DNA of 64,000 nt from Candidatus Nomurabacteria bacterium. GTDB taxonomy: Bacteria; Patescibacteriota; Patescibacteriia; UBA1558; GWA2-36-10. The position numbers and the translations under genes were made by a program. Where the stretch lies: contig JACKFO010000002.1 in NCBI GenBank assembly GCA_020632415.1, forward strand, positions 514,732 to 578,731, read 5' to 3'. Below the pieces are notes generated by a model that worked only from the letters and a program-made list of their open reading frames with translations, ran no database searches and had not been told where the DNA came from. Shown here in pieces: positions 47,434 to 64,000 of the stretch. The stretch's first letter is position 1, and the number at the start of each line of letters is the position of its first letter.

Positions 47434-47637
47434 GTCACCCAACACCCGGTATGCGGTTCGCGAGAGACTACTAGAAAAATATACTTATTGCAAATAAGTA
47501 TATTTTCATTTAAAGTTAATAAGGTATATTTTTCTTCAGTCCTCGCTCTCGTAAATCCCTCGACTCCAACGCATGATTATAAGATTATATCATGCAGGAG
47601 TCTCGGGACTTCGCATACCGTGGACAGTTAGCTGAAA
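47434..47637 (+). repeat. Integron attC-like imperfect palindrome (long form, no ORF inside); first element of the cassette array
   Basis: Left arm CACCCAACACCCGGTATGCGGTTCGCGAGAG is complementary to right arm CTCGGGACTTCGCATACCGTGGACAGTTAGCTG; the terminal boxes ACCCAAC / GTTAGCT fit RYYYAAC / GTTRRRY. Confidence 0.6.
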
Positions 47638-47734
47638 TATTCCTTTTCTTTTAATGAATAAATAAGCTATTATTAAAAAACATTTTCAAATTTCTTTTTC
47701 TTTATTATAAAGGGGAACCTGCCTGTCGGCAGGA

Positions 47735-50700
47735 GTGGATGTTTCCTCCGCTACGCTTCGGAAACAATTTAATAATTTAAATACAATGAATCAATATTAC
47801 AGAGGCTCAGAGTGGCGCAAGTGGGATCTTCACATTCACACTCCAAAATCAATAATCCAACAATACAGCGGCGATACTGAGGCTGTTTGGGATATATTTA
47901 TTAAAAAACTTGCACAATTGCCACCGGAGTTAAAAGTAATAGCCGTTACTGACTATCTTTTTTGTGATGGGTATGAGTATCTACTTACGCGCAAGGACGA
48001 GATACCAAATATCAAATTGATCATTCCCAACATCGAATTCCGTCTCAATACGTTTAGCGGTACACCAAACAATACAAAGCGACACAATTTCCATGTACTC
48101 TTTGACCCGTCGGTTTTAATTCAAGATATCCGAGATCAACTGCTCAACTGTCTTTCAACCGGCTACAAAATCGAGGACGGCACCGAATGGTTACAAACAC
48201 CCACAGTTCGCTCACTTGAAGAATTAGGACGTCAGATAAAAGCCGCCGCTCCACCCGAGAATACTGTACATACCAAATCCGATCTGAAAGTCGGCTTTGA
48301 AAACATCACCTACAAACGTGAGGACATCGAAATATTACTTAATAAAAATTGTTTTAAGGGTCGTTTCGTAACTGCAGTCGGCTATTCCGAATGGGATCAA
48401 TCCAGATGGGACCAGTCAACCGCAGAAAAGCGTACACTGATAAATACCGCAAACTTTTCACTTACAAGCTTGAATGACCCAGCAAAAATCGAGGAAAACC
48501 GTAGAGATCTTACCGCCAACAAACTAAATAATATTGTGCTTCACTCTTCCGATTCTCATGACATTGATTGCGTGGGAGAGACAATGCTTTGGATAAAAGC
48601 CGATCCTACCTTTGCAGGCTTAAAACAGGTTTTAAATGAGCCAGAAGCACGTGTCTTTATTGGTGCGACACCTCCAAACTACAAACCAGAGCATAAGGTT
48701 ATTTCTCGTATTTCAATTCCATCATCAAACGGATGGTTTGCTGATGATTTCTCTATAGAATTGAATAGAGATCTTGTTACCGTTATTGGCGGACGTGGTT
48801 CTGGTAAGTCTGCCCTAGCAGAAGTAATCGCCTGTGGTGCTGGCAGTGAGGACGAAAGCGACGATGCATTCTTGAAGAAAGCTACAAAGCATCCCAACCC
48901 CATCAAAGGTGCGGAGATTTTTGTGGAGTGGGCTGATGGAAACACTACTAGCTTTAAGGTTGGCGAGCTTCCCGAAGATCAAGGACTCGTACGTTATCTC
49001 CCCCAAGGAGTTGTAGAAGAATTATGCTCTCACAAGAATAGTGAAAAGCTTCAGAAACAAATCGAGAATGTTATCTTCCAAGCTCTTGATGATACGGAAC
49101 GCATGGGGGCGTCTGATTTCGATGAGCTGCAAATACGTATCTTGAGCGGCTTCCAATATGAGAAGGAGCAAATTGTAAAAAAGGTCCGTGACATAAACCG
49201 AAAACTAAGCAGCCTATCAACTGTCCTCTCCGGTTTGCCGGATAAACAAAAAATTCTCGATGACAGCAAGAAAGAGCTAGAACGGTTGATTAAAAGCTTA
49301 CCAGAACTTCCTGCTGAGGACAAAAAAGGTCAGGAGGAACTTGCCGCACTTGCGGAAATAAAGAAGAAATTTGAAACGAAGATTATCGAGCTTCAAAAAC
49401 GTCTCAACAAGATATTTGAAGTAGAATCCAAAGTAAAAGTTTTCAAAACAAAGGTTAAGGAATTCGGAGAAGAAACGAGCGCACTATTGTCGGATCTTGG
49501 TATCACTGACACATCGGCTTTCGATGTAAATGTAGACGATATCAATATTAAGGCCGTGTTGGACGAGAAGAAAAACGAGATTACTAACGATCTCAGGATT
49601 CTCAAGGAAGGTACGAAATTGGATGTCGCTATTGTATTGGGTATGGAAACAAATCTTCCGTTTGATAACCTTCAGACACTTAACCAAGGTATTGAGGACA
49701 AGCAAAAAGAAACGCGCGCATTTGAAACCACAAAACTCAAGTACCAACAGCAAAAGAAAACCGCGCTTGCGCTCGAAAGCTCGATCCAGGCTCTTGAAAA
49801 TGAAATATCCAAAATCAGCACTGAATCTACTCCAGAAAAGGAACGACTGGAAAAAGAGCGCATAAACACGTACTGCTCATATTTCAAGTTACTAGGCGAA
49901 GAAAAAATACAAATGGAAGTATTATATAAACCGCTTCAAAAATCACTCTTAGCCGGAACAGACACCGATAAGAAACTTATGTTTGAGGCACAAATAAACT
50001 ATCGCTTGGAAGCACACAATAAAAATGGCCTCGACATCATTGACCGCACGCGCAAAGGAAATTTCCGCGAGCCTGGAAACCTCAAAACTGCGCTTACTGA
50101 ACTCTGGGATGAAACGGTAAGACATAACTTCGATAAAGATATTCTCGAAACAGAAATTAAAAAAATCATCGAAGCGTTTACGACATGTGATGGGGAAAGC
50201 GTCACAATTGAAAGTCAACTGCGCGATAATTACGGCATTGAGGATTTTTACAATTGGCTATTTGATCCGACCAATTTTGAAATTGTGTCTTCACTTAAAT
50301 TCGACGACACAAATCTCTACGTACTTTCACCTGGACAGAAAGGTATTATTTTACTCATGCTTTTCTTAGAGATCGATAAAGGAGATTATCGACCACTTAT
50401 CATCGACCAACCTGAAGAGAACTTGGATAACCTCTCAGTCTATAAAGACCTCATTAACTACTTCCGAGAACGCAAACAATACCGACAAATCATCATGGTT
50501 ACTCACAACCCGAACCTTGTCGTAAACACTGATGCGGAGCAGATTATCGTTGCCAGCTATAATGGCAAGCACATACCTCGTTTGACGTACAGCTCAGGAT
50601 CACTTGAGGATCAGGCAAAACAGATTCCAAATACATCGACTATGGAACTTGAAGATGGGATTATTGAGCAAGTTTGTAACATTCTTGAAGGAGGCGAACG

Positions 50701-50764
50701 TGCATTTGAAAAACGGAAGAAAAAATATCAAATATCTCAAAAAATGAAAAATCAAGAGTCATAA
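47735..50764 (+). CDS. PHP-domain phosphoesterase fused to an SbcC/Rad50-like coiled-coil ABC ATPase (about 1000 aa); candidate defence/conflict-system protein
   Basis: N-terminal PHP motifs WDLHIHTPKS, IAVTDY, HNFHVLFDP; Walker A VIGGRGSGKSAL; about 300-aa coiled coil; C-terminal signature LSPGQKG, Walker B LIIDQPEENLD, H-loop MVTHNPN. The start is either GTG 47735 (overlapping SD AGGAG) or ATG 47786. Confidence 0.75.
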   Translation: MDVSSATLRKQFNNLNTMNQYYRGSEWRKWDLHIHTPKSIIQQYSGDTEAVWDIFIKKLAQLPPELKVIAVTDYLFCDGYEYLLTRKDEIPNIKLIIPNIEFRLNTFSGTPNNTKRHNFHVLFDPSVLIQDIRDQLLNCLSTGYKIEDGTEWLQTPTVRSLEELGRQIKAAAPPENTVHTKSDLKVGFENITYKREDIEILLNKNCFKGRFVTAVGYSEWDQSRWDQSTAEKRTLINTANFSLTSLNDPAKIEENRRDLTANKLNNIVLHSSDSHDIDCVGETMLWIKADPTFAGLKQVLNEPEARVFIGATPPNYKPEHKVISRISIPSSNGWFADDFSIELNRDLVTVIGGRGSGKSALAEVIACGAGSEDESDDAFLKKATKHPNPIKGAEIFVEWADGNTTSFKVGELPEDQGLVRYLPQGVVEELCSHKNSEKLQKQIENVIFQALDDTERMGASDFDELQIRILSGFQYEKEQIVKKVRDINRKLSSLSTVLSGLPDKQKILDDSKKELERLIKSLPELPAEDKKGQEELAALAEIKKKFETKIIELQKRLNKIFEVESKVKVFKTKVKEFGEETSALLSDLGITDTSAFDVNVDDINIKAVLDEKKNEITNDLRILKEGTKLDVAIVLGMETNLPFDNLQTLNQGIEDKQKETRAFETTKLKYQQQKKTALALESSIQALENEISKISTESTPEKERLEKERINTYCSYFKLLGEEKIQMEVLYKPLQKSLLAGTDTDKKLMFEAQINYRLEAHNKNGLDIIDRTRKGNFREPGNLKTALTELWDETVRHNFDKDILETEIKKIIEAFTTCDGESVTIESQLRDNYGIEDFYNWLFDPTNFEIVSSLKFDDTNLYVLSPGQKGIILLMLFLEIDKGDYRPLIIDQPEENLDNLSVYKDLINYFRERKQYRQIIMVTHNPNLVVNTDAEQIIVASYNGKHIPRLTYSSGSLEDQAKQIPNTSTMELEDGIIEQVCNILEGGERAFEKRKKKYQISQKMKNQES

Positions 50765-50860
50765 ATTTTGGGCTCGGGCATTCACCCCTTTATCCCCTCT
50801 GCCCTTCGCCCAAAAATGAAAAAAAGAAATTCACTAAGAATAAATACTAAGAATTTAAGA

Positions 50861-50891
50861 AAAGGAATACATCAGCCAACAGCGGATGTCC
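50861..50891 (+). repeat. attC-like short element (left arm only): CAGCCAACAGCGGATGTCCGATAAGCAAG
   Basis: Its reverse complement is found split at both ends of the long element at 51264-51374. Confidence 0.55.
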
Positions 50892-50921
50892 GATAAGCAA
50901 GTTTAATTTTAATTAAAATAT

Positions 50922-51272
50922 ATGCAAGAAAAAACAAAAAAACATCTAGTGAGTTATTTAATAATCTACTTAATAGTATCTGGATTATTATTAGTATTAT
51001 TACGGGACATGTACTCTGCTTTGGTTAGTGGATTATCATTAGTATTATTATTCATAATACTACCTCACAGAATATATCTGCTATTTAAAAATCCAAAAGC
51101 AGAGAATAATATATCAGGAAAAAACATAGCCTTGATACTATTTGCATCTATACTATGTATAGCTGGTTTTTTCATGTACTTGCTAAATGAAAATCTATAT
51201 TGGCCAGGCAAAATATTATTCGTTATAGGATTAACATACATTGTAAGTGCTGTAAGAAATACTAAAAATTAA
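50922..51272 (+). CDS. Cassette ORF: small membrane protein (3 TM helices)
   Basis: 116 aa hydrophobic ORF bounded by attC-like elements. Confidence 0.4.
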   Translation: MQEKTKKHLVSYLIIYLIVSGLLLVLLRDMYSALVSGLSLVLLFIILPHRIYLLFKNPKAENNISGKNIALILFASILCIAGFFMYLLNENLYWPGKILFVIGLTYIVSAVRNTKN

Positions 51273-51374
51273 ACTTGCTTATCCAAATTCCACTTTCGCT
51301 TTTGCGGTTTGCTCCGCAAAATTATACCGCAACGCTCAAGTGAAACTTCGGACATCCGCGTAATGTTAGCTGAA
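51264..51374 (+). repeat. attC-like long element ending in CGGACATCCGCGTAATGTTAGCTGAAAT
   Basis: Equals the reverse complement of the 50861-50891 element with a 75-bp internal insertion. Confidence 0.55.
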
Positions 51375-51448
51375 ATAAATTTTTCCTTTTTACAATAAAA
51401 CAAACCAAAATAACAAAAATACTTATTTGATTTTTTTATCAATATTAT

Positions 51449-51925
51449 ATGGACTTCTCTCAAGTAGACAATCAGACTAAAACCGAATTTAGAGCAACGA
51501 GAATTTTTATTCGTAGTCAAAATTTAGACGATACCGAAAAAAATTTTAAAAAAGAAATCGATGATCTAAGTATAGATATAATATATATTCCAAAATCTTT
51601 AAAATTTCAAATTGTTTCAGTTGATGGCGGGCCAGATAAATTAATGTCCAAAGGAGAATATGAGTGGTCATTTTTATTAACAGATTTTTTTAGAATATAC
51701 ATTAAAGAACCAATACTAAAAAAGACTAAAAAATACGCCGGTCAACCAGGTCAAGACACAATACTTATAATTCACGCATTAAATATGCCTGCAACGGAAG
51801 AAATAATTACAAAAACAATTGAAGATAATAAAAATCATATTAATAAATTAGGTAATGATAGTGGATTTAATAAAATTTTTTTAATTTTTGATTCTAAAGA
51901 AAAAGTTTTTGATTTATTCAAATAA
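51449..51925 (+). CDS. Cassette ORF: hypothetical protein (158 aa)
   Basis: ORF between attC-like elements; no motif recognised. Confidence 0.4.
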   Translation: MDFSQVDNQTKTEFRATRIFIRSQNLDDTEKNFKKEIDDLSIDIIYIPKSLKFQIVSVDGGPDKLMSKGEYEWSFLLTDFFRIYIKEPILKKTKKYAGQPGQDTILIIHALNMPATEEIITKTIEDNKNHINKLGNDSGFNKIFLIFDSKEKVFDLFK

Positions 51926-51983
51926 AAAAATCAAATCATACTATTAAATAATAAAAACATTTAAAAATCTAAGAAAAAATTTA

Positions 51984-52006
51984 CATCACCCAACAGCGGA
52001 TGTGAG
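51984..52006 (+). repeat. attC-like short element CATCACCCAACAGCGGATGTGAG
   Basis: Consensus short form, repeated at least 8 times in the array. Confidence 0.55.
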
Positions 52007-52038
52007 GCTCCGCCTTTAAGAATAATATAAAATTAATT

Positions 52039-52608
52039 ATGGACTTATACCAAAAAACAGAACAATTTGTCATAGATTCCTTTACTAAAGCTGGAGATGA
52101 ACGTGGAATTAAACATTTCTTAAGAACTGTTTATTGGTTAGAGCAATTAAAGCCAAATGCTGATGAAGCATTAAAAATTGCTGCAGTTGCTCATGACATT
52201 GAAAGAGCTTTTAGAAAACAAGATTATGCTAATGTCTTTAATTCTGAAAAAGGTTTTGCTAGTGATGAACATTTGAGTTATCATCAAACTGAAGGAGCAA
52301 AAATAATCTCTGAGTTTTTGAAAAAAGAAGGTGCGGATAAAAAAATTGTAGAGCGTGTTAAAATGTTAGTAGAAAAACACGAGATTGGTGGCAATGAAGA
52401 TCAAAATCTAGTAAAAGATGCTGATAGTGTAAGCTTTTTTGAAAATAACGCTAATCACTTTATAGAAGTGAAAGTTAAACAGACAAGCAAAGAGAAAGTA
52501 AAAGATAAATTTGATTGGATGTTTAATAGAATTACTTCTGACAAAGCTAAAGAGCTAGCAAAACCTTGGTATGAAGAAGGATTGCATAAATTGTCCTTAC
52601 TGGATTAA
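52039..52608 (+). CDS. Cassette ORF: HD-domain phosphohydrolase
   Basis: H ... AHDIER ... D metal-binding pattern. Confidence 0.55.
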   Translation: MDLYQKTEQFVIDSFTKAGDERGIKHFLRTVYWLEQLKPNADEALKIAAVAHDIERAFRKQDYANVFNSEKGFASDEHLSYHQTEGAKIISEFLKKEGADKKIVERVKMLVEKHEIGGNEDQNLVKDADSVSFFENNANHFIEVKVKQTSKEKVKDKFDWMFNRITSDKAKELAKPWYEEGLHKLSLLD

Positions 52609-52629
52609 TTTTATATTATTCTTAAGCTT

Positions 52630-52725
52630 CGCCCAAATCACTCGTTCGTTTACGTGATGCGCTTCGCGCTATTATATCACGACACTCACTCGTGACTTCT
52701 CACATCCGCGATATGTTAGGTGAAA
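52630..52725 (+). repeat. attC-like long element (TCACCCAAATCACTCG ... CTCACATCCGCGATATGTTAGGTGAAA)
   Basis: Consensus long form; near-identical copies at 53913, 57196, 60218 and 62541. Confidence 0.6.
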
Positions 52726-52769
52726 CCGAGAATTTATAAAATAAATATTTCTATTACAAAAAAAATAAA

Positions 52770-53315
52770 ATGCGATACGTTATTGTCTGTAATTTAAATG
52801 GTGATGTTGTCAAATATCACAAACAATTAGTTAATGAAATAGCTAAAAATTTTAATATTGCTAAGCCAAAAAAACAAAATCTACAACCACATTTTACACT
52901 TAAGTATGGATTTGAAACTAATAATATAAAAACAATTGAAAAGGCAATAAAAGATTTCTGCGCTAGAAACCATAAAGCTTCTGTTAAAATTAATGGTTTT
53001 GGCAAATTTAGAAAAGATGTAATATTTTGTAAAGTTATTCTTTCAAAAAAAGCTTACGCTATATTCACTGAACTTTTAAATGACTTGAAAAAAATCCCCA
53101 AATTAACATGGAATAAGAATGATGGAAAAAGGCTAAAATTCCATGCTACCATAGCTGCAGATTGTGAAGACAAATATACTGAAATTCAAAAATATTTAAA
53201 AGGAAAAGAAAAAAACTTTACTACCTATTTTGACAACATCACCATACTACAACAACAAAGAATAGTTGATGGAATAAGTATTTGGAAAACATTTAAAAAA
53301 TTTCAAATTAAATAG
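52770..53315 (+). CDS. Cassette ORF: 2H-phosphoesterase (LigT-like) family protein
   Basis: Two HxT/Sx motifs: PHFTLKY and FHATIAA. Confidence 0.55.
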   Translation: MRYVIVCNLNGDVVKYHKQLVNEIAKNFNIAKPKKQNLQPHFTLKYGFETNNIKTIEKAIKDFCARNHKASVKINGFGKFRKDVIFCKVILSKKAYAIFTELLNDLKKIPKLTWNKNDGKRLKFHATIAADCEDKYTEIQKYLKGKEKNFTTYFDNITILQQQRIVDGISIWKTFKKFQIK

Positions 53316-53326
53316 CAAATTCTCGA

Positions 53327-53373
53327 CATCACCCAACAGCGGATGTGAAGTTCGTAAAATAAAGAAAATCACC
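53327..53373 (+). repeat. attC-like short element with extended arm
   Basis: CATCACCCAACAGCGGATGTGAAGTTCGTAAAATAAAGAAAATCACC is the reverse complement of the flank and end of the 53894-54009 element. Confidence 0.55.
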
Positions 53374-53375
53374 TT

Positions 53376-53897
53376 ATGAAATATACTATTCCAACAAAAC
53401 AATGGTTGAATCCTAAAGTGGAAATAAAAAACTCCTCTATTGCAAGTAGAGGAATATTTGCTAAAGAGTTAATTAAAAAAGATGAGGTAGTTGTTATTTG
53501 GGGTGGAGATAATTATACAGATTATCAAGGGATGCTCAAAGCTAAAAAAGAAGGTAAATTGGTAATGCATTGGGATGATGATCTATATAGTTTTGAGAAT
53601 AGACAAAGTGATGACACTTATTTTATAAACCATTCTTGTAATTCTAATCTTTGGTTAAAAGATCAATTTACTTTAATTGCTAAAAGAGATATAAATATTG
53701 GAGAGGAAATAACCATTGATTATGCTTTATTTGAAGGAGATGAAGATTATATAGCTCAATGGGAATGTAATTGTAAAGAAGTGGATTGTAGAAAAAAGAT
53801 TACTGGAAATGATTGGAAAATAAAAGCTGTACAAGAAAGATATAAAGATCATTTCTTGCCTTATATTAATAGAAAGATTAATAATTTAAACAAGTGA
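53376..53897 (+). CDS. Cassette ORF: SET-domain protein (putative protein-lysine methyltransferase)
   Basis: NHSCNSNLW and EEITIDY SET motifs plus a Cys-rich post-SET region CNCKEVDCRKK. Confidence 0.6.
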   Translation: MKYTIPTKQWLNPKVEIKNSSIASRGIFAKELIKKDEVVVIWGGDNYTDYQGMLKAKKEGKLVMHWDDDLYSFENRQSDDTYFINHSCNSNLWLKDQFTLIAKRDINIGEEITIDYALFEGDEDYIAQWECNCKEVDCRKKITGNDWKIKAVQERYKDHFLPYINRKINNLNK

Positions 53898-54009
53898 TTT
53901 TCTTTATTTCACTCACCCAAATCACTCGTTCGTTTACGTGATGCGCTTCGCGCTATTATATCACGACACTCACTCGTGACTTCTCACATCCGCGATATGT
54001 TAGGTGAAA
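53894..54009 (+). repeat. attC-like long element
   Basis: Identical to 52630-52725 from CCCAAAT onward. Confidence 0.6.
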
Positions 54010-54053
54010 CCGAGAATTTATAAAATAAATATTTCTATTACAAAAAAAATAAA

Positions 54054-54599
54054 ATGCGATACGTTATTGTCTGTAATTTAAATGGTGATGTTGTCAAATA
54101 TCACAAACAATTAGTTAATGAAATAGCTAAAAATTTTAATATTGCTAAGCCAAAAAAACAAAATCTACAACCACATTTTACACTTAAGTATGGATTTGAA
54201 ACTAATAATATAAAAACAATTGAAAAGGCAATAAAAGATTTCTGCGCTAGAAACCATAAAGCTTCTGTTAAAATTAATGGTTTTGGCAAATTTAGAAAAG
54301 ATGTAATATTTTGTAAAGTTATTCTTTCAAAAAAAGCTTACGCTATATTCACTGAACTTTTAAATGACTTGAAAAAAATCCCCAAATTAACATGGAATAA
54401 GAATGATGGAAAAAGGCTAAAATTCCATGCTACCATAGCTGCAGATTGTGAAGACAAATATACTGAAATTCAAAAATATTTAAAAGGAAAAGAAAAAAAC
54501 TTTACTACCTATTTTGACAACATCACCATACTACAACAACAAAGAATAGTTGATGGAATAAGTATTTGGAAAACATTTAAAAAATTTCAAATTAAATAG
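54054..54599 (+). CDS. Cassette ORF: 2H-phosphoesterase, exact duplicate of 52770-53315
   Basis: 181/181 aa identical, with identical upstream element and downstream left arm. Confidence 0.55.
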   Translation: MRYVIVCNLNGDVVKYHKQLVNEIAKNFNIAKPKKQNLQPHFTLKYGFETNNIKTIEKAIKDFCARNHKASVKINGFGKFRKDVIFCKVILSKKAYAIFTELLNDLKKIPKLTWNKNDGKRLKFHATIAADCEDKYTEIQKYLKGKEKNFTTYFDNITILQQQRIVDGISIWKTFKKFQIK

Positions 54600-54610
54600 C
54601 AAATTCTCGA

Positions 54611-56826: not shown

Positions 56827-56862
56827 GTTACGAGAAAATAACTAATAATCTTTATACTATAT

Positions 56863-57183
56863 ATGAATCTAGAAGAATTATTACAATTTATTAACAACGA
56901 AGATCAAAGATTGATCCAATTTAAGAATGGTAATAATGAAAAAGAAAGGATACTTTCAAGAACAGTAAAAATGACAGAAGAGTTAGGAGAATTATGTAAT
57001 GAAGTATTATCTTTTATTGGTGATCAAAGAAAAGAAAAACTAGAAAGAACAGATAAAGATAACTTACCAAATGAATTTGCTGACGTAATTATCACTACTC
57101 TACTTCTTGCTAAAACTATGAATGTAGATATAGTAAAAGCTTTAGAAGATAAAATTGAGAAAATAAAGAAGAGAAATTATTAG
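56863..57183 (+). CDS. Cassette ORF: MazG-like nucleoside triphosphate pyrophosphohydrolase
   Basis: EELGELCNEVL (EExGE motif), small all-alpha protein. Confidence 0.5.
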   Translation: MNLEELLQFINNEDQRLIQFKNGNNEKERILSRTVKMTEELGELCNEVLSFIGDQRKEKLERTDKDNLPNEFADVIITTLLLAKTMNVDIVKALEDKIEKIKKRNY

Positions 57184-57195
57184 TTATTTTCTCTT

Positions 57196-57292
57196 CACCC
57201 AAATCACTCGTTCGTTTACGTGATGCGCTTCGCGCTATTATATCACGACACTCACTCGTGACTTCTCGCATCCGCAATATGTTAGGTGAAAT
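57196..57292 (+). repeat. attC-like long element
   Basis: CACCCAAATCACTCG ... GTTAGGTGAAAT. Confidence 0.6.
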
Positions 57293-57314
57293 AATTTTAG
57301 AAATTTAAATACCA

Positions 57315-57689
57315 ATGAAAAGTAACCTCTACAAAAAAGAAAGTAAAATCCATGGATTAGGCATTTTTACTAATGCCCCAATTTTAAAAAATGCAGTTAT
57401 TTATAAAGTACCCTTAAATAAAATTTATCATGCCGCAAGAAAAAAATGTGCTTTTATAGGAAATAATATGTGGGTAGATGATGAAAAAATTCTAAATTTT
57501 ATTAACCACTCATGTAATGCAAACGCTAAACTAGATCTAAGTGATAAACCACAAATTATAGCGAAAAGAAAAATAAAAACCGACGAAGAGATAACTGTTG
57601 ATTACGACCAAACCGAGCTTAATGGAACAAAAATGATATGTTGTTGTAAAAGTAAAAAATGTAAAAAATACTTTCTAACCATTCAATAA
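57315..57689 (+). CDS. Cassette ORF: SET-domain protein (second paralog)
   Basis: NHSCNANAKL, EEITVDYD, post-SET CCCKSKKCKK. Confidence 0.55.
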   Translation: MKSNLYKKESKIHGLGIFTNAPILKNAVIYKVPLNKIYHAARKKCAFIGNNMWVDDEKILNFINHSCNANAKLDLSDKPQIIAKRKIKTDEEITVDYDQTELNGTKMICCCKSKKCKKYFLTIQ

Positions 57690-57690
57690 T

Positions 57691-58338
57691 ATGCTGCCAA
57701 AAATTGGAATTCTAGGAGGAATTGGCCCAGAAGCTTCTGCGGAATTTTATAAAAAACTAATTCAAAAATGCCAAAACTCCAAAATCAAAAATAATCAATC
57801 ATACCCTTATATTATTTTAGAGAGCATACCTGCTCCTGAGTTATTTTTGAAAAAGCCTAACTTGAAAATGTATGAAGACGGCATAAAAAATTTGGAAAAA
57901 TGTAAATCCAACTTCATAGTTATAATTTGCAATACTGCACACATTTTTTTCAAACATTTTCAGGCATTAGTAAAAATACCTATAATAAATCTGGAAGGCG
58001 AAATAGAAAAAGTCCTAAAAAAACAAAAAATTAAGTCGATTTTCATCTTAGGCTCTAGTGCTACAGCTAATAATTTATTCCGCTTTAAAAACATTGAGAC
58101 TAATTCACCTACTAAAGTTGAGCAAAATAAAATTGATAACATTATAAAAAATTATAATGCTGGAAAAAGTAAAAAATTACAAAAAAAAGATTTATTAAAA
58201 ATAGTTAATAAATACAAAAAACATACTTTACTTTTAGCTTGCACGGAAATATCTGCTATGTTGAAAGATGAAAATCTTAAATACATTGATACAATGGATG
58301 TTGCACTTGAGGTTACTTATACAAAGTGGAAAAAATAA
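57691..58338 (+). CDS. Cassette ORF: Asp/Glu racemase family (aspartate racemase-like)
   Basis: IGILGGIGPEAS N-terminus; catalytic Cys motifs CNTAH and ACTEIS. Confidence 0.65.
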   Translation: MLPKIGILGGIGPEASAEFYKKLIQKCQNSKIKNNQSYPYIILESIPAPELFLKKPNLKMYEDGIKNLEKCKSNFIVIICNTAHIFFKHFQALVKIPIINLEGEIEKVLKKQKIKSIFILGSSATANNLFRFKNIETNSPTKVEQNKIDNIIKNYNAGKSKKLQKKDLLKIVNKYKKHTLLLACTEISAMLKDENLKYIDTMDVALEVTYTKWKK

Positions 58339-58359
58339 AAAATTTCTAAAATTACATCG

Positions 58360-58389
58360 CACAACACCCGGTATGCGGTTCGCGAGAAC
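58360..58389 (+). repeat. attC-like short element, second sequence family (CACAACACCCGGTATGCGGTTCGCGAGAAC)
   Basis: Matches the left arm of the 47434 element. Confidence 0.55.
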
Positions 58390-58408
58390 TAAAGAAATAT
58401 AACAAACT

Positions 58409-58924
58409 ATGTTAGAAAATAATTACGATAAAGAATTAGAAAGAGCCATCCAGTTTCTTGTGTTTGCAATTACTGAATCTGGACATAACCCAAAACCAGT
58501 AATCTTACATAGTATTAAGGTAGCTTTATATTTACAAAATAAACAATATTCTAAAGATATTGCTATCGCCTCTTGTTTACATGACTTATTGGAAGATACA
58601 AAAATAAGTGAAGAAGATATAAAAAATGAATTTGGAGATAAAATATTAAATTTAGTTAAAGCAAATACTTTTGATACTTCAATTTCAGATAAAACTGAAC
58701 AATACAAAGAAATGTTTACAAGAACTGTCAAGGCTGGTAAAGAAGCAATGATTATTAAAGCTGCTGATATTCTAGAAAATAGTTATCATTGGAATAAAGC
58801 AATCAATGAAGAACAAGTAAATTGGTTAATTAATAAGGCAAAGTACTTCTTAGAACTCACAGCTATTGAACTTAAAGATGAAATTGTTTACAAAGATTTG
58901 CAAACACAAGTAAATAACTTTTAA
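58409..58924 (+). CDS. Cassette ORF: HD-domain protein
   Basis: H ... LHDLLEDT ... D pattern. Confidence 0.5.
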   Translation: MLENNYDKELERAIQFLVFAITESGHNPKPVILHSIKVALYLQNKQYSKDIAIASCLHDLLEDTKISEEDIKNEFGDKILNLVKANTFDTSISDKTEQYKEMFTRTVKAGKEAMIIKAADILENSYHWNKAINEEQVNWLINKAKYFLELTAIELKDEIVYKDLQTQVNNF

Positions 58925-58938
58925 TCAAATAATTTCTT

Positions 58939-59040
58939 TAGTCCTCGCTCACTGCAAATCCCTCACTCGTCACGGTGGTTATAAATTATACCACCTAAAC
59001 TCGTTCGGGACTTCGCATACCGTGGACAGTTAGGTGAAAT
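58939..59040 (+). repeat. attC-like long element, second family (ends TTCGCATACCGTGGACAGTTAGGTGAAAT)
   Basis: Right-arm partner of 58360-58389; internal TATAAATTATACC. Confidence 0.55.
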
Positions 59041-59099
59041 ATTCCTTTTCTTTTTTCAGATTGGTATCATCATTATTTAAATAATTTTATATAAACAAT

Positions 59100-59555
59100 A
59101 TGCCAAACTTTTTTAAGTATCCAGCTAAAAATTTCAAAAACCAAGATATAAAAATTAGCATTAATTCTGGACCAGTGATTATTGGTGAAGATGGAAGGTT
59201 TTTACTACATATTTCTAGTAGTACAGGAAAATATCAATTTACTGGCGGACGTCTTGACGATAGTAAATCACCAAAAGAGAATGCAATTTTTAGACCAAAA
59301 GAAGATGTTGGTTTAGAAGTGGAATTAATAAAAAATTTAAATCCTTTAGTTATCTCTGATGAAATTGAAAGAAATGGAGAAAAAGAAAAGTTGGTCTTAA
59401 TTCATTATTTAGCAAAATTGAAAGATGGATTTGAACCTGATCTGTCCAGGTGTTCTTGGTTTACATTAGATGAAGTAAAGGAATTAGAAAAAAATAATAA
59501 TGTTTCATCACCAAATATTCTAATTGGCTGTAAATATTTTACTCAAACAATTTAA
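59100..59555 (+). CDS. Cassette ORF: NUDIX-like hydrolase (tentative)
   Basis: Gx5Ex7-like box GGRLDDSKSPKENAIFRPKEDVGLEV, only a partial match to the Nudix signature. Confidence 0.3.
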   Translation: MPNFFKYPAKNFKNQDIKISINSGPVIIGEDGRFLLHISSSTGKYQFTGGRLDDSKSPKENAIFRPKEDVGLEVELIKNLNPLVISDEIERNGEKEKLVLIHYLAKLKDGFEPDLSRCSWFTLDEVKELEKNNNVSSPNILIGCKYFTQTI

Positions 59556-59582
59556 AAAAAGAAAAGGAATACATCACCCAAC

Positions 59583-59604
59583 AGCGGATGTGAGATTCGT
59601 AAAA
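59583..59604 (+). repeat. attC-like short element
   Basis: CATCACCCAACAGCGGATGTGAG. Confidence 0.55.
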
Positions 59605-59624
59605 TAAATAGTAAATAACTTAAC

Positions 59625-60191
59625 ATGACAAAATATATTTTGCACGGTGGCGCAACTAGTAAAGATTCGCCAGATAATAAAAAATTTTTCAATGAAGCAA
59701 TGAGCAGCTTACCAGATCAGGCCGTTATTCTTTTTGTGTATTTTGCCCGAGAGAAGGAACTGTGGCCAAAAATGTTAGAACAGGATAAATTACATTTTTC
59801 TCCTACCGATAAGCAAAAAGTTTTTAACTTCACTATCGCCGACGACAAAATATCTAACCTTATAGAACAAATTAAAAAAGCCGACTTAATATACTTAAGA
59901 GGTGGCCAAACAGATCGATTAAAAGACACTTTGAGTAAAGTTAAAAATCTAGGTGGTTTGTTAAAAGACAAGGTTGTAGTAGGTTCTTCGGCTGGAGCAT
60001 ATGTTTTGTCTAGATATTATTATACCAATAGCAAAGACATTATATTAAATGGTCTTGATATATTACCAATAAAAACTTTTTGTCACTATTCCGAAGAAAA
60101 AGCCGATAAACTAGATAAGCTAAAACAATACGAGGAGAATTTGAAAGTTTATGCAATACCAGAAGAAAAATTTTTTATTATAGAAGTGTAA
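59625..60191 (+). CDS. Cassette ORF: peptidase S51 (peptidase E / cyanophycinase-like) family protein
   Basis: YLRGGQT and VVGSSAGAYVLS (nucleophile Ser) motifs. Confidence 0.55.
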   Translation: MTKYILHGGATSKDSPDNKKFFNEAMSSLPDQAVILFVYFAREKELWPKMLEQDKLHFSPTDKQKVFNFTIADDKISNLIEQIKKADLIYLRGGQTDRLKDTLSKVKNLGGLLKDKVVVGSSAGAYVLSRYYYTNSKDIILNGLDILPIKTFCHYSEEKADKLDKLKQYEENLKVYAIPEEKFFIIEV

Positions 60192-60217
60192 GGTTAGTTA
60201 TTTGCTATTTATTTTAC

Positions 60218-60315
60218 TCACCCAAATCACTCGTCCGTTTACGTGATGCGCTTCGCGCTATTATATCACGACACTCACTCGTGACTTCTCACATCCGCGA
60301 TATGTTAGGTGAAAT
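60218..60315 (+). repeat. attC-like long element
   Basis: TCACCCAAATCACTCG ... GTTAGGTGAAAT. Confidence 0.6.
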
Positions 60316-60389
60316 GGTGTTTTTTTAGAAAATGAATGACCCCCAACGTACTGGACGCTGGGGGTCTTTGATTTTCTCAAACAGGCGCT

Positions 60390-60863
60390 CTACTTCAGAA
60401 GAATGTAGAGCATAGGAGCTGTGATTGCGATGAACTCTGCTGTAATGACACTACGTATAATGACTTTCCTGTCATCTATCCAAATGTACTTTTCTGTACT
60501 CAGTATAGCTGTGGCTCCAAACATTAAAGCAAATATCATTATTGAGCTTGCTATTGCTGTTTGAGAAGCAAAAAATAATGCCGTAGCAGAAGCAACCAAA
60601 GAACCAAAAAAAGCAGTAGAAAAAGCGGGCATAACTATACCATTTGATTTAATAAGGAAAGCACAAAAAAGTGAAAAAATAGTCACACTTACTAAGGCCA
60701 TTGATATAGACAGTATAATGCTATACTTTGCCCAGAGACAAAAATTTAGCCAAAAAAACAAAACAACGCCATTTGGTATCCAGACAACTGCTCTACTGGT
60801 GATTTTCGGTGGATCCTCTTTGAAAATACCCACCGGTCTACGGAAAAGATCTTGCGCGTTCAT
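60390..60863 (-). CDS. Cassette ORF (inverted): polytopic membrane protein, member of a three-gene paralog family
   Basis: 4-5 TM helices; C-terminal ...APMLYILLK conserved with 61251 and 63625; own terminator hairpin GACCCCCA ... TGGGGGTC at 60338-60366. Confidence 0.45.
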   Translation of the reverse strand: MNAQDLFRRPVGIFKEDPPKITSRAVVWIPNGVVLFFWLNFCLWAKYSIILSISMALVSVTIFSLFCAFLIKSNGIVMPAFSTAFFGSLVASATALFFASQTAIASSIMIFALMFGATAILSTEKYIWIDDRKVIIRSVITAEFIAITAPMLYILLK

Positions 60864-61004
60864 GATGGTTCTCCTTTGTTTGAGATTTATGTGATGAACA
60901 AAAACAAAATTAAATTACCATATATCTAATATTTTGCAAAGACTTATTCAAAGACCCCCTAAAAATAGTGTTTTTATTCAAAATAAAGGCAAAAACACCA
61001 CTTC

Positions 61005-61165
61005 TACCCAACACCGCGTATGAGGTTCAACTCCTCCACTAACGTGTCGTCGTTTCACCAAAATCGTGTCTTCCCTTATGCAGTTGATCTCTCGCCCAAC
61101 TCGGGATATAATTATACTGCAACGGTCAGACACGACTTCTCATACGCTGGACAGTTAGGTGAAAT
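61005..61165 (+). repeat. attC-like full element without internal ORF
   Basis: Arms CCCAACACCGCGTATGAGG / CTCATACGCTGGACAGTTAGGTG; internal TATAATTATAC. Confidence 0.55.
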
Positions 61166-61250
61166 GGTGCTTTTTAAGAAAAATGAAAAGCCCCTCAGCA
61201 CGTGGACACGAGGGGTCTTTGGTTTTCATTTGCAGGAAGTGTGAAATGTT

Positions 61251-61871
61251 TCAGGAAGCGATCGCCGTCTTGATCTGATCCTGATGCACGAAAATGTACC
61301 ACAACATCGGTGCAGCGAAGACGATAAACTCAGTTATTACACTAAGAAAAGCATACTTCTTAGAAAAATCTTCCTCATCAGCGCATTGAAACACGGGCGC
61401 AATAGCGATTGCGGCGTATACGGACAGTGCGACCAATAGAGTGTGTGAGGTGAATATGACTAGCACGCAGAATAATATGAGCGATGAAAGTACAGAGAGC
61501 ACAGCGTATGAACCTAATAAGACAAGTAGTCCAAATGCCATGGAAACTGCGGCTGCGGCGGATATAGCAAACATGGCCGCTAACATAGTATCGCCACTCA
61601 CCGCATTGACGATAAAAAAAGTCATCCAAGCGACGACGACGCTCGCCAACTTCCACCAAAAAATCCTGACCTTCGGATTCATGATTTCTGTGATTTCTCC
61701 ATAGGTGATTCTTCCCTGAACATTTCCTGAACTGAATCCATCAGTGGCCAAATCGCCACAGCCTGGCTTAGGTCGAAATCCGGCATTTCTTTCTGCTCGG
61801 ACAAACTCTTCCCTAGTGAGCTCGTGCCATGGCAACTTGCCTACGCGGAGCCAATAACGCTCTTGGTTCAT
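61251..61871 (-). CDS. Cassette ORF (inverted): membrane protein paralog with cytoplasmic N-terminal domain
   Basis: C-terminal FAAPMLWYIFVHQDQIKTAIAS conserved with 63625; downstream hairpin GCCCCTC ... GAGGGGTC. Confidence 0.45.
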   Translation of the reverse strand: MNQERYWLRVGKLPWHELTREEFVRAERNAGFRPKPGCGDLATDGFSSGNVQGRITYGEITEIMNPKVRIFWWKLASVVVAWMTFFIVNAVSGDTMLAAMFAISAAAAVSMAFGLLVLLGSYAVLSVLSSLILFCVLVIFTSHTLLVALSVYAAIAIAPVFQCADEEDFSKKYAFLSVITEFIVFAAPMLWYIFVHQDQIKTAIAS

Positions 61872-62007
61872 TGTCTAAGTCTCCTGCTGAAATGTGATGA
61901 ACTTCTCAATATGATAAATTACCATATATATACCATTCTGTAAATATACAGCAAAGGCCCCCTAAATAAAGAGGTTTTTCTAATAAAATAAGCAAAAAAC
62001 ACCACAT

Positions 62008-62027
62008 CTCCCAACAGCGGATGTGAG
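62008..62027 (+). repeat. attC-like short element
   Basis: CTCCCAACAGCGGATGTGAG. Confidence 0.5.
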
Positions 62028-62053
62028 GTTCGTAAGTTAGGTAATTATTTTTT

Positions 62054-62527
62054 ATGAAAAAAAATTGTTTATTCTGTAATAAAAAGGAAGATTGGATTTT
62101 TGAAAATAGATATTTTTATTCTGTATTTGACATTCATCCAGTATCTCCGGGTCATGCCTTGGCAATTCCTAAAAGACATATTGTCTCTCTATTAGATTTA
62201 ACAGATAATGAGTGGAATGAGCTAAAAAAATCTATTACTGAAACTATCAACATTATTGGATTAACAAATAAGAGGGAATTGTATTTAGAAATGAAGGAAA
62301 AAGAAATTACAAAAAAATCTCCTCTGTTCTGTAAAAAGATGTTAATACATTTGGGTATTAACAAAAAAACAAAAGATTTTAATATTGGAGTAAATGATGG
62401 TAGATTAGCAGGAAGAACAATAGATCACCTACATATTCAAATAATTCCTAGATATAAAGATGATGTCAAAAATCCAATCGGTGGTATTAGAACAATTATT
62501 CCTGGACTAGGAAATTACAAAAAATAA
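62054..62527 (+). CDS. Cassette ORF: HIT-family (histidine triad) nucleotide hydrolase
   Basis: CLFCNKK N-terminus and DHLHIQIIPR histidine triad. Confidence 0.65.
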   Translation: MKKNCLFCNKKEDWIFENRYFYSVFDIHPVSPGHALAIPKRHIVSLLDLTDNEWNELKKSITETINIIGLTNKRELYLEMKEKEITKKSPLFCKKMLIHLGINKKTKDFNIGVNDGRLAGRTIDHLHIQIIPRYKDDVKNPIGGIRTIIPGLGNYKK

Positions 62528-62540
62528 TTTCCTAACTTAC

Positions 62541-62643
62541 TCACCCAAATCACTCGTTCGTTTACGTGGTTGTGAGCTAACGCTCACATTTTACCACGAC
62601 ACTCACTCGTGACTTCTCACATCCGCGATATGTTAGATGAAAT
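62541..62643 (+). repeat. attC-like long element (variant centre, ends GTTAGATGAAAT)
   Basis: TCACCCAAATCACTCGTTCG ... CTCACATCCGCGATATGTTAGATG. Confidence 0.55.
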
Positions 62644-62754
62644 TTTCTTTAAAAATATTTTTTCATTTAAGTCCTTTTGAAATTTTTAGAAAAAGAAAAA
62701 GCCCACACAAGTGTGCAGGCCGAGCAGATCTATATATTCAACTGGAGAAGTTGT

Positions 62755-63003
62755 TTATTCAACCAAAGCAATAAATTGATCAGAATATTGTTTATCAAAA
62801 CAATGGACAAAATCATCACAATCTAAGACAACACACAGCTGAGGTTTGCCAAACGTTTCAGTGACTCCAGCAACCTCTCCTTTCGCATTTAATAGGGTGT
62901 AAGAAACACGATCATGTGGTTTGAAACCAAACTCAGAGCAAAGCTCTTCCGAGGTGTCAACCACAATAGGAATGCCGCTCAACGAAGTCATTTGCTTTTT
63001 CAT
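62755..63003 (-). CDS. Cassette ORF (inverted): hypothetical 82-aa protein
   Basis: ORF only. Confidence 0.3.
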   Translation of the reverse strand: MKKQMTSLSGIPIVVDTSEELCSEFGFKPHDRVSYTLLNAKGEVAGVTETFGKPQLCVVLDCDDFVHCFDKQYSDQFIALVE

Positions 63004-63221
63004 CTCAAACTCCGGAGATTTGATGTGCTATTTACGCTATGTTTAGCGTTTTCAAATAACTATATAATAAAAATCCATTCTTGTCAAGCAGGCAAAAATT
63101 TCAAAAGAATTAAGATAAATGTTAAAATATTTTTAAACAAAACCAACCCACGCTGCGCTCTCGGTCTGTCTTTTCTCGATTTAAAGATTAAATTAAGGAA
63201 GTTAAAGACAGAGCCTCGGGA

Positions 63222-63242
63222 CGTCCAACAGCGGATGTGAGA
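63222..63242 (+). repeat. attC-like short element
   Basis: CGTCCAACAGCGGATGTGAG. Confidence 0.5.
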
Positions 63243-63439
63243 GAAAAAGAGAAATAAAAAAAAGCCCTCTTGATGCTATCGCTGAGAGCAGAGAACAGAT
63301 GTCTTTTTTACGGATCGGCTTATGGTGCCTAGGGTTTCCCATTTACAATGCCTGGGCAATACCCCATCTGTTATGCAAATATACTAGCACATATTAAATA
63401 TTTTGTCAATAACTAAAATGGGTTAAAATTAACCTATTT

Positions 63440-63545
63440 TTTATTTCTCTTTTTCTCCAAATTGCCACCTCGTTTCGGTAGTTGTATAATTATACTACCT
63501 TCACTCGGTGACAACTTCTCACATCCGCAATATGTTAGGTGAAAT
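63440..63545 (+). repeat. attC-like long element with sigma70-like promoter (TTGCCA-17-TATAAT at 63462-63490)
   Basis: Near-identical to 55160-55262. Confidence 0.55.
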
Positions 63546-63624
63546 GATGTTTTTTAGAGAAAATGAAAAGCCCCTCGAATACATAGCAAACGAGGGGTCT
63601 TTGATTTCTGAAACAGGAGATGAT

Positions 63625-63984
63625 TCAGTGACCGATCATGGCCGTCTTGATCTGCCCCTGATGTGTCACAATGTACCATATCATCGGCGTAGCGATGATA
63701 ATTAACTCCGCCACCAGCGAAAGAAACACATACCCCTTGGTGAGGTTTTGTCTCTTGGTGTAGTAGGATCCGGCGAGCATGGCGACGATTGCGGCGACGA
63801 TTGCGGCGGCGATTGCGGCAATTGCGGTGGATGCAGCGGGCGCGGCGGCGATTGCGGCGATTGCGGCGGCGATTGCGGCTGATGCAGCGGGCGCGACGAT
63901 TGCGGCGGCGAGCATGGCAACGATTGCGGCAGCGAGCATGACGGCGATTGCGGCGATTAAGAGGGATGCAGGATCACCACTCAT
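63625..63984 (-). CDS. Cassette ORF (inverted): membrane protein paralog with Ala/Ile-rich tandem-repeat region; start may lie beyond the window edge
   Basis: C-terminal ATPMIWYIVTHQGQIKTAMIGH conserved with 61251; internal GC-rich 12-15-bp tandem repeats (ATTGCGGCGGCG-like) at 63770-63960; downstream hairpin GCCCCTCG ... CGAGGGGTC. Confidence 0.4.
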   Translation of the reverse strand: MSGDPASLLIAAIAVMLAAAIVAMLAAAIVAPAASAAIAAAIAAIAAAPAASTAIAAIAAAIVAAIVAMLAGSYYTKRQNLTKGYVFLSLVAELIIIATPMIWYIVTHQGQIKTAMIGH

Positions 63985-64000
63985 GCCTTTGGTGATAAAG

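Follow-up and report, generated by a model that had tools for sequence, protein, structure and literature searches.

The 64,000-nucleotide stretch analysed here (the window) belongs to contig JACKFO010000002.1 of a Candidatus Nomurabacteria bacterium, a small-genome bacterium of the Candidate Phyla Radiation (CPR) that carries an integron-like gene-capture array in this region. The array is a series of unrelated small genes with 12 palindromic sites between them that resemble the attC sites of integrons, and it begins beside the gene of a Xer-like tyrosine recombinase and a conserved attI. A scan of the window located 13 co-oriented R' boxes and 12 R'' boxes, the latter being CATCACCCAACA and its variants, all of them on the plus strand between positions 44518 and 63545, and the same scan found no comparable box in positions 1-44000. 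The recombinase gene, the attI region and the R' boxes, the boxes being taken from a wider scan, are placed as follows.

43552-44439, minus strand: tyrosine recombinase of 295 aa, XerA-like (Pfam Phage_integrase and a SAM-like N domain)
44466-44529, plus strand: attI region, with a weak outward promoter and a dif-like core
44466-44494, plus strand: attI promoter TTTACA-17-TAAACT, weak (9/12 match)
44502-44512: left arm of the attI core
44513-44518: 6-nt centre of the attI core, ACCTTG
44519-44529: right arm of the attI core, TTAGGTGAAAT
44518, 47627, 51365, 52715, 53999, 56059, 57281, 59029, 60304, 61154, 62632 and 63534, plus strand: R' boxes GTTAGGTGAAAT, with at most one mismatch
55257, plus strand: variant R' box GTTAGAC, written GTTAGACGCC at attC4

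The original prediction, made from the sequence of the window, had let the array start at 47434 and had counted more than 25 small open reading frames (ORFs) in it. The true start is at 44518, abutting the recombinase gene, and about 22 genes are credible; the 3 kb between the recombinase and position 47434 are the first cassette and therefore not a gap. The repeats themselves were found as described, since the short motif CATCACCCAACAGCGGATGTGAG has seven matches and the end of the long element six, all on the plus strand from 50.8 to 63.5 kb, with an expectation of 0 from shuffled sequences. The second L-box family (CCCGGTATGCG and CGCATACCG) is also present, and the outer boxes match RYYYAAC and GTTRRRY. 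A covariance model built from 48 metagenome sites alone matches the window inside the array only, and on the plus strand only. The cargo is a mixture of unrelated small enzymes and membrane proteins, among them HD, SET, MazG, NUDIX, HIT and peptidase S51 proteins, a racemase, a 2'-5' ligase-like protein and a TrlF/Ppl-like ATPase.

The recombinase is transcribed away from the array, and the first R' box (44518) is placed 79 bp upstream of its start codon (44439). All the catalytic residues (R-K-H-R-H-Y) are present. The protein reaches 253 bits against the NCBIfam model for XerA (NF040815, cutoff 220), and its best solved relatives are archaeal XerA structures, while it stays below the cutoffs of the integron integrases (198 bits against 265 for TIGR02249 and 121 against 435 for PRK15417). 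Its alignment to VchIntIA (2a3v) splits, with residues 191-213 of the query opposite residues 173-236 of IntIA, and the approximately 41 residues that are missing correspond to the position of the IntI-specific domain near patch III. Canonical IntIs, the archaeal ones included, carry this extra domain (PMC9668308). The protein of the window has no accessory domain and is thus of the Xer type rather than an integron integrase, and the array is therefore not filed as a member of the integrons. The absence of a canonical IntI and the Xer-like character of the neighbour had been recognized from the beginning; its supposed distance of 3 kb was wrong, as the gene directly adjoins the array start.

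On the other side of the recombinase gene lies, directly beside it, a gene for a ComM/YifB-type Mg-chelatase-like ATPase (41898-43415), a synteny kept in three related metagenome loci (L003-L005; such loci are numbered with an L below). ComM takes part in natural transformation, where it acts on incoming single-stranded DNA, and in view of this role its presence here may or may not be a coincidence. Further into the conserved backbone, the minus strand holds an ORF of 2548 aa (7227-14873).

A closer look at attI showed a likeness to dif, the site of the Xer recombinases. In the related locus L004 the attI core reads GGTGCATATAT-ACAGTG-TTAGGTGAAAT, and 17 of its 22 arm positions are those of Escherichia coli dif, GGTGCGCATAA-TGTATA-TTATGTTAAAT (PMC3025954). 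The common R' arm, TTATGTGAAAT, agrees with the XerD arm at 10 of 11 positions, and the motif ACTTCxCATAy is similar to the left arm of Bacillus subtilis dif, ACTTCCTAGAA (PMC3025954). In L142 the attI core, ACTTCGCCTAT-CCAGTG-TTGTACGAAAT, consists of the arm motifs of the attC-like sites around a 6-nt centre. The cores of L004 and L142 thus have the architecture of a dif site (28-31 bp, two arms, centre of 6-8 bp).

This likeness raises the question of whether the enzyme is simply the housekeeping Xer of the cell, a single recombinase such as XerA, XerS or XerH, with attI as the chromosomal dif and the cassettes as hitch-hikers piling up there in the manner of integrative mobile elements exploiting Xer (IMEX). 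The score above the XerA cutoff, the closeness to the XerA structures, the dif-like attI and the fact that only one such recombinase is found within the window all fit this explanation. In XerS systems, moreover, the site adjoins the gene, and with CTX phage there is already a case in which Xer works on a single strand folded into a hairpin. A chromosomal dif is expected as a single site at the GC-skew switch of the terminus; here the arm motifs occur in at least 13 copies. Against the explanation, the skew of the left flank is strongly negative, with minus-strand genes up to the recombinase and no positive-to-negative switch, although this is a weak argument with 44 kb of backbone visible. 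Genes for replication or transfer are missing from the cassettes, the arrays are long, with all units co-oriented and read starting at attI, and the linkage between array and recombinase holds across enzymes only 40% identical. We therefore regard this explanation as unlikely, while noting that it overlaps with the mechanism favoured below and differs from it only in the primary role of the enzyme.

The sites themselves share one order of elements, R'' (CACCCAAC), a single A, L'' (for instance GCGGATGTGAG), the hairpin P2, CAAAT, the hairpin P3, ACTTC, L' (CTCACATCCGC), 3-5 nt and R' (GTTAGGTGAAAT). In its usual form, a site of the family has an R stem and an L stem separated by a bulge, followed by a three-way junction that bears P2 and P3 and in which CAAAT and (A)CTTC are conserved and unpaired. 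This arrangement modifies the account given in the original prediction, in which each short element was the reverse complement of both ends of a long one: it pairs with the 3' end (L'-R') only, and the supposed insertion in the long copy is the remainder of the long element, which forms P3 as a hairpin of its own. Three of the 12 sites are empty, as had been noticed, and the other nine carry an insert in the loop of P2, which is a gene in eight cases and a non-coding unit in the ninth. The two arms are often separated by a whole ORF, as had also been remarked, because the gene occupies the P2 loop of the three-way junction. The sites consequently measure 153-743 nt, and the three empty ones 153-206 nt. 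Each gene is bracketed by its own unique inverted repeat of 15-37 bp. For the inserts in P2 loops this repeat is 22-38 nt long and reaches the start and stop codons; for the genes lying between sites it continues the R boxes. The R stem is prolonged by 15-80 nt of cassette-specific pairing.

When the genes in the loops were replaced by GAAA and the joined arms folded, all 12 sites of the window gave the same three-way junction, with a constant bulge of 3-5 nt on the L'-R' arm, and the bottom strand was the stabler one by 3-8 kcal/mol in 12 of 12. The empty site attC5 in its native form has DNA fold z-scores of -4.6 (bottom) and -3.3 (top). In the folded site the R''-L'' strand provides a 6-nt spacing, and the extra 3-5 nt of the opposite strand, whose L'-R' centre is 9-11 nt long, bulge out. 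In addition, some P3 hairpins include a promoter close to consensus (TTGCCA-17-TATAAT, at 55185-55213 and 63462-63490), directed towards the following cassette.

The pairing was examined further in 48 non-redundant compact sites from metagenomes, P2 and P3 being obtained by mapping the individual folds onto alignment columns before the pairs were counted. The proposed structure has 85.6% of its cells paired, compared with at most 47% for slid partners. L'' and L' are 97% paired within each site, with many compensatory changes, and such changes are also seen in P2 and P3 taken together (in 11 of 12 and then in 14 of 16 pairs), including the closing GGY/RCC helix of P2. RNAalifold run on the MAFFT alignment recovered the L stem only. 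In every helix, G.T mismatches are as frequent as A.C mismatches, and since an RNA would favour G.U, this symmetry argues for a structure acting at the DNA rather than the RNA level; a reading at the RNA level was discarded on this ground. Three other arrangements were also considered and rejected. If the short element were a small hairpin of its own, this hairpin would lack conservation in the second L-box family; the long element, taken by itself to be a full attC via its internal CACCCAAAT, would leave 19 nt unpaired between L' and R'; and a standard cassette inserted at a secondary GTT would bring along a second attC with the inner gene, which none has.

The idea that the palindromes are dispersed repeats of the REP (repetitive extragenic palindrome) or MITE (miniature inverted-repeat transposable element) kind, or elements working in RNA as terminators or processing stems, with no role in mobility, can draw on the terminator-like P2 hairpins of the empty sites and on the long stems around each coding region. 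Nevertheless, the repeats are confined to the array, with none in the 44 kb of backbone and all on one strand, and loci with several sites have them co-oriented. A search of Rfam over 43-64 kb (E <= 1) gave nothing relevant, and the mismatches show no excess of G.U over A.C. Added to this are the junction swaps and cassette polymorphism at the sites, the strict linkage to the recombinase gene, and a gene order beside attI that is not conserved in relatives; this idea is hardly credible.

If each cassette is taken to begin at the TT of a GTTAGGT box and to extend to the G of the following box, with the attC-like site at its end, the array is divided as follows.

44519-47638, plus strand: cassette 0, a complete diversity-generating retroelement (DGR) and the empty attC0 (47433-47638)
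44601-45647, minus strand: reverse transcriptase of cassette 0 (Pfam RVT_1)
45710-45985, plus strand: bAvd gene of cassette 0 (Pfam bAvd)
45993-46126: template repeat (TR) of cassette 0, from the comparison with the variable repeat (VR)
46507-47109, minus strand: target gene of cassette 0, 200 aa, with the C-terminal VR at 46509-46642
47639-51376, plus strand: cassette 1, TrlF-family/Ppl-like ATPase (47735-50764); attC1 (50870-51376), P2 loop with the gene of a 116-aa membrane protein (50922-51272)
51377-52726, plus strand: cassette 2, 158-aa gene (51449-51925); attC2 (51984-52726), P2 loop with an HD/DUF4202 gene (52039-52608)
52727-54010, plus strand: cassette 3, 2'-5' RNA ligase-like gene (52770-53315); attC3 (53327-54010), P2 loop with a SET-domain gene (53376-53897)
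54011-55268, plus strand: cassette 4, identical ligase-like copy (54054-54599); attC4 (54611-55268), with the variant R' box GTTAGACGCC
54705-55007, minus strand: P2 insert of attC4, an inverted 100-aa gene with its own terminator
55269-56070, plus strand: cassette 5, inverted 155-aa gene (55399-55866, minus strand) with its own promoter and terminator; empty attC5 (55918-56070)
56071-57292, plus strand: cassette 6, 224-aa gene (56114-56788); attC6 (56804-57292), P2 with a MazG-like gene (56863-57183)
57293-59040, plus strand: cassette 7, SET-domain gene (57315-57689) and Asp/Glu racemase gene (57691-58338); attC7 (58355-59040)
59041-60315, plus strand: cassette 8, NUDIX gene (59100-59555); attC8 (59572-60315), P2 with a peptidase S51 gene (59625-60191)
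60316-61165, plus strand: cassette 9, inverted gene of a 157-aa membrane protein (60390-60863, minus strand) with its own terminator; empty attC9 (61004-61165)
61166-62643, plus strand: cassette 10, inverted 206-aa gene (61251-61871, minus strand); attC10 (62005-62643), P2 with a HIT-family gene (62054-62527)
62644-63545, plus strand: cassette 11, inverted 82-aa gene (62755-63003, minus strand); attC11 (63220-63545)
63546-64000, plus strand: start of cassette 12, inverted membrane-protein gene (63625-63984, minus strand); the array continues past the window

The first cassette is a DGR in all its parts, with a reverse transcriptase, an Avd protein and a TR/VR pair whose differences fall at coding-strand adenines only. 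Its target gene has its own promoter (TTGACA-17-TATACT, 47305-47277), an inverted repeat of about 80 nt, of which the R boxes are a part, encloses the whole cassette, and attC0 folds into the three-way junction. The ATPase of cassette 1 (1009 aa) is a TrlF-family AAA-like protein (NF045780, 572 bits) that also matches, less strongly, Ppl, a protein directed against phages; cassette 1 is probably a defence cassette. The HD/DUF4202 gene of cassette 2 is enclosed by a perfect 22-bp inverted repeat touching its start and stop codons. attC7 belongs to the second L-box family and holds an HD-domain gene in P2 (58409-58924). attC5 and attC9 are matched by the covariance model of the metagenome sites with 36.6 bits (E 1e-5) and 36.2 bits, respectively. 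The P2 loop of attC11 is occupied by about 170 nt of non-coding sequence (63265-63433), an insert that has a promoter of its own on the minus strand (TTGACA-17-TAGTAT, 63409-63381), a T-run hairpin end near 63265 and no Rfam match; this promoter and hairpin end suggest that the insert may be a small RNA of about 110 nt. The terminators proposed for the inverted cassettes were found, and so were promoters of their own. These inverted genes are not the product of site-specific inversion, an origin that was considered and dropped, since the boxes around them keep their asymmetry: every R' of the window reads GTTAGG, and every R'' reads GTTGGG in reverse complement. The last minus-strand membrane-protein gene includes a GC-rich repeat (CGATTGCGGCGG...) with a periodicity of 9 and 12 nt (63771-63971), to which the stretch at 61394-61423 is related.

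Several observations bear on the mobility of these cassettes. The 26 nt that precede the AAC of R'' complement the start of their own cassette rather than that of the next one in 43 against 11 of 59 cassettes (Wilcoxon p = 4e-7), which, on the sequences, is the circular-permutation signature of integron cassettes, and the boundaries lie at G/TT (the slash marks the junction) apart from the exceptions at the junction core given below. Pairs of loci have the same attC with a different downstream sequence, or the same cassette with a different upstream one, and the switch is located inside the site core. Cassette 11, including its non-coding insert, is found with 98.9% identity in L148, beside an attI-like flank and before a different cassette. 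The window and L004 share a cassette chassis (5' terminator, 3' promoter region and attC; 60290-61180 and 1-1125, respectively) that is about 95% identical around unrelated genes, the first cassette of L004 having the flanks and attC of cassette 9 with a different gene. Contigs 100% identical to cassette 10 come from other samples and break off inside the attC repeats. Exact-protein look-ups gave no match for the SET gene and the last gene of the window, and for other proteins only short contigs ending in the repeats; homologues of the window cassettes are almost absent from about 0.55 Mb of related loci. Taken together, content polymorphism and mosaic junctions suggest that cassettes are gained, lost and reordered.

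Some breakpoints lie elsewhere. The exact duplication already reported in the original prediction was confirmed (52633-53348 equals 53917-54632, 716 bp), and it is bounded by the bases of two P2 hairpins and not by R' boxes, as a result of which identical arms, P3 and neighbouring gene are found around three different P2 genes. In L148 (ERZ27309364 k141_134361), whose left flank resembles the attI region, a hybrid attC has R''-L''-P2-P3 of one family and then, directly after ACTTC, the L', R' and next cassette of another, so that L'' and L' no longer pair.

Breakpoints of this kind, at the bases of P2 and P3, behave as independent swaps of C modules, and they bring to mind the dif modules of Acinetobacter plasmids, in which C and D modules alternate between inversely oriented 28-bp pdif sites with 6-bp spacers (PMC13141974). 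Read in this way, the array would be a set of modules between inversely oriented dif-like sites, D modules where the R arms are inside and C modules where the L arms are, shuffled as duplexes by Xer, and the folding of hairpins would be incidental. The geometry is indeed the same, with alternating modules flanked by inverted sites, and the short element, read in reverse complement, forms a 28-mer whose arms are dif-like and whose centre measures 6 nt. R-internal and L-internal gene units alternate here as D and C modules do; a double-strand component is kept as a minority explanation. A duplex site, however, has no need of the pairwise covariation seen in L''/L', P2 and P3, and the L'-R' centre, always enlarged by 3-5 bases to 9-11 nt, is unable to pair with the centres of attI and the short element, which have 6 nt. 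In most arrays the presumed C module is just a 45-nt pair of hairpins. The constant GTTAGG of R' and GTTGGG of the R'' reverse complement, inverted genes included, indicate that in the window modules have not been flipped at these sites, and all the sites are co-oriented. We consider this explanation improbable.

Relatives of the system were found in five contigs of Parcubacteria metagenome-assembled genomes (MAGs), whose recombinases are 77-82% identical to that of the window and which have about 10 kb of backbone in common beyond the gene. Their attI regions align up to GTG/TTA and then diverge, and cassette content differs between these sister genomes downstream of the conserved attI: the window begins with the DGR, L004 with a repeat protein, L019 with a small ORF and L005 with a hairpin and restriction-modification genes, so that the first cassette is a different one each time. 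Several of these contigs end at or just past attI, L001 exactly at GTT, and short-read contigs from other samples (L001, L144, L145 and L146) end at the GTT of attI or inside attC repeats. As a rule, metagenome bins probably contain arrays of this type in under-assembled form. A wider scan of metagenomes with the pattern ACTTC-L'-spacer-R', in which counts are lower bounds from the matches listed, places the site family in more than 120 loci. Among these matches, the sites fall into two main groups by length, 75-100 and 120-150 nt, and a tail of sites with genes in P2 measures 430-830 nt. The 43 loci with at least two sites each keep to one orientation, no locus being mixed, and the median distance between their sites is 874 bp. 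Arrays of the typical order ORF-site-ORF-site are seen in L023 and L045, and genes in the P2 loop recur in other metagenomes. Recombinases 40-68% identical to that of the window (269-291 aa, without the insert) stand divergently beside arrays in L065, L077, L096, L111, L140 and L142/L143, the contigs of L140 (847 kb) and L142/L143 (368 and 809 kb) being array-bearing. The succession of divergent recombinase, attI and array, the geometry of an integron, is thus present in the window, L004, L019, L065, L077, L096, L111, L140 and L142. As a separate observation, L006, a contig binned as an Omnitrophota MAG outside the CPR, has a recombinase 53% identical to that of the window and a compact site of the same family (2691-2784); either the system reaches beyond the CPR or the contig is mis-binned.

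This linkage also speaks to a simpler explanation, an ordinary integron array without integrase (CALIN) that is served by an IntI elsewhere, the Xer-like neighbour being a bystander. The R boxes match RYYYAAC and GTTRRRY exactly, and an adjacent IntI is missing from most attC arrays of archaea, where 6 IntIs stand against 539 attCs (PMC9668308). A bystander, on the other hand, would not be expected divergently beside the array start in at least 10 independent loci at 40-100% identity, nor together with a conserved attI. About 0.6 Mb of array-bearing loci yielded no IntI-type protein, every hit being without the insert, and the CAAAT and ACTTC motifs of the junction are foreign to canonical attCs. 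On balance this explanation seems very improbable.

The array is therefore best described, and in our judgement probably, as a chromosomal gene-cassette platform that works like an integron and is built on a Xer-type recombinase and dif-like sites. In this mechanism the recombinase gene faces away from the dif-like attI (core 44502-44529), and the cassettes follow it in a single orientation. A site in single-stranded form would fold by pairing R'' with R' and L'' with L' into a dif-like duplex with two recombinase arms and a short centre, the 3-5 extra bases being bulged on the L'-R' arm and P2 and P3 extending from the three-way junction beyond the L stem. One strand would then be cut at AA/C (G/TT on the top strand), by analogy with integrons and with the integration of CTX phage at dif, and exchanged with attI or another attC; replication would resolve the product, and the outcome would be the insertion, excision and reordering of cassettes. 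As the folded attC has dif-like arms and centre, the integron crossover G/TT (AA/C on the bottom strand) coincides with the boundary between arm and centre, which we infer to be the cut point of a Xer-type enzyme; the single-stranded substrate and the choice of strand are likewise deduced from the analysis of the sites. The P2 loop would serve as an additional gene slot, and tolerance of large inserts there would explain why many cassettes of the window carry a second gene inside their own site. The long unique inverted repeats would hold the arms of the site together, and the promoter in some P3 hairpins would serve the cassette that it faces.

Several points weigh against this mechanism. The recombinase is without the domain by which canonical integrases read a folded attC, so that its recognition of folded sites is drawn by analogy. 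Three breakpoints (both ends of the duplication and the hybrid attC of L148) are at the core of the three-way junction and not at G/TT. The short element alone is a dif-like 28-mer with a 6-nt centre, for which reason double-strand reactions are still conceivable. Finally, the conservation of ACTTC, GTTA and L pairing in the metagenome set is partly by construction, because these were fixed in the selection pattern; P2, P3, the R stem and the sites of the window are independent of it, and the sites of the window, L004 and L019, found independently of the pattern, present the same three features.

The system resembles integrons in its divergent tyrosine recombinase beside attI, in its co-oriented small cassettes, promoterless or self-promoted, and in the imperfect palindrome R''-L''...L'-R' with RYYYAAC and GTTRRRY boxes that ends each of them. 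It also shares the G/TT junctions at attI, an R'' that matches the first bases of its own cassette, the similarity of sites within one genome, a diverse cargo that includes defence genes, and a location that is kept while the content varies. It differs in a recombinase that lacks the IntI insert near patch III and scores as XerA, in the dif-like attI, and in sites that form a three-way junction with unpaired CAAAT and ACTTC, whereas an integron attC is a simple stem with extrahelical bases. The R stem extended by 15-80 nt, the whole genes in the hairpin loop of a site and the breakpoints at the junction core are further differences. Canonical attCs are 57-141 nt long; the compact form of this family measures 75-150 nt, and the sites of the window, with the extra three-way junction, 153-743 nt. 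The reading in the original prediction, of an array that is integron-like and departs from textbook integrons, is supported by the adjacent divergent recombinase, the conserved attI, the co-oriented attC-like palindromes, the diverse cargo, the cassette polymorphism and the swapped junctions. The adjacency of the recombinase, the DGR as first cassette, the dif-like sites and the widespread family of elements were absent from it.

The closest mechanistic relatives are integrons, the CTX-type integration of hairpins at dif and the dif modules. With the IMEX of CTX-phage type, which use XerCD, the array has in common a Xer-family enzyme acting (here by prediction) on a folded hairpin that mimics dif, a mismatched or bulged centre that leads to the exchange of one strand pair, and tandem accumulation at the site. 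In contrast to them, the units here are cassettes of 0.6-3.7 kb without replication or phage genes, each array contains at least a dozen of them, and the site, to which the recombinase gene is linked, is probably not the dif of the chromosomal terminus. The Acinetobacter dif modules likewise place small unrelated modules alternately between inversely oriented dif-like sites and are mosaic between relatives; here, however, the sites around an L-internal module are mutually complementary and fold together, one centre has 9-11 nt, most L-internal modules are two short hairpins, and the array is chromosomal, with co-oriented units and a single adjacent recombinase of its own. As for the single-recombinase Xer systems (archaeal XerA/dif, XerS/difSL and XerH/difH), they have the same protein family, size, intact catalytic residues and two-arm dif-like core near the gene, but the arm motifs occur here at least 13 times in an array of accessory genes, and the folded three-way-junction sites have no counterpart there.

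The literature on integrons or attC sites in CPR, Patescibacteria and Parcubacteria, on Xer-based arrays and on three-way-junction attCs, with coverage that was incomplete, yielded no description of such a system. An aquifer survey retained 'complete' integrons only, and surveys that require these or a canonical IntI would miss arrays of this type, so that the gene-capture platforms of the CPR may be systematically under-counted. The array has the look of a branch of the integron idea that is either separate or ancestral. Whether it represents a widespread second kind of integron in the CPR, and perhaps in other uncultured lineages, with a plain Xer-family integrase, a dif-like attI and three-way-junction sites that rebuild a dif-like duplex, is a proposal on which we find the balance even. 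If true, it would be either the intermediate long sought between Xer/dif and IntI/attC or a case of gene capture that was invented independently, and the hairpin loop as a gene slot, the equivalent of a C module, would bring integrons, the CTX-type integration of hairpins and the Acinetobacter dif modules together as a single mechanistic family. Integrons take their definition from a specialised integrase, and their origin from Xer recombinases and the origin of attC cassettes are open questions, for which a plain Xer-like enzyme tied to attC-like arrays and dif-like sites in many uncultured genomes gives testable material; the genes inside sites, the long pairing arms around every gene and the breakpoints at the junction core could bear on how cassettes are formed. 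For bacteria with ultra-small genomes, arrays of this kind would be a means of keeping accessory and defence genes in a flexible pool, to which a complete DGR and a Ppl/TrlF-like ATPase belong here as cassettes.

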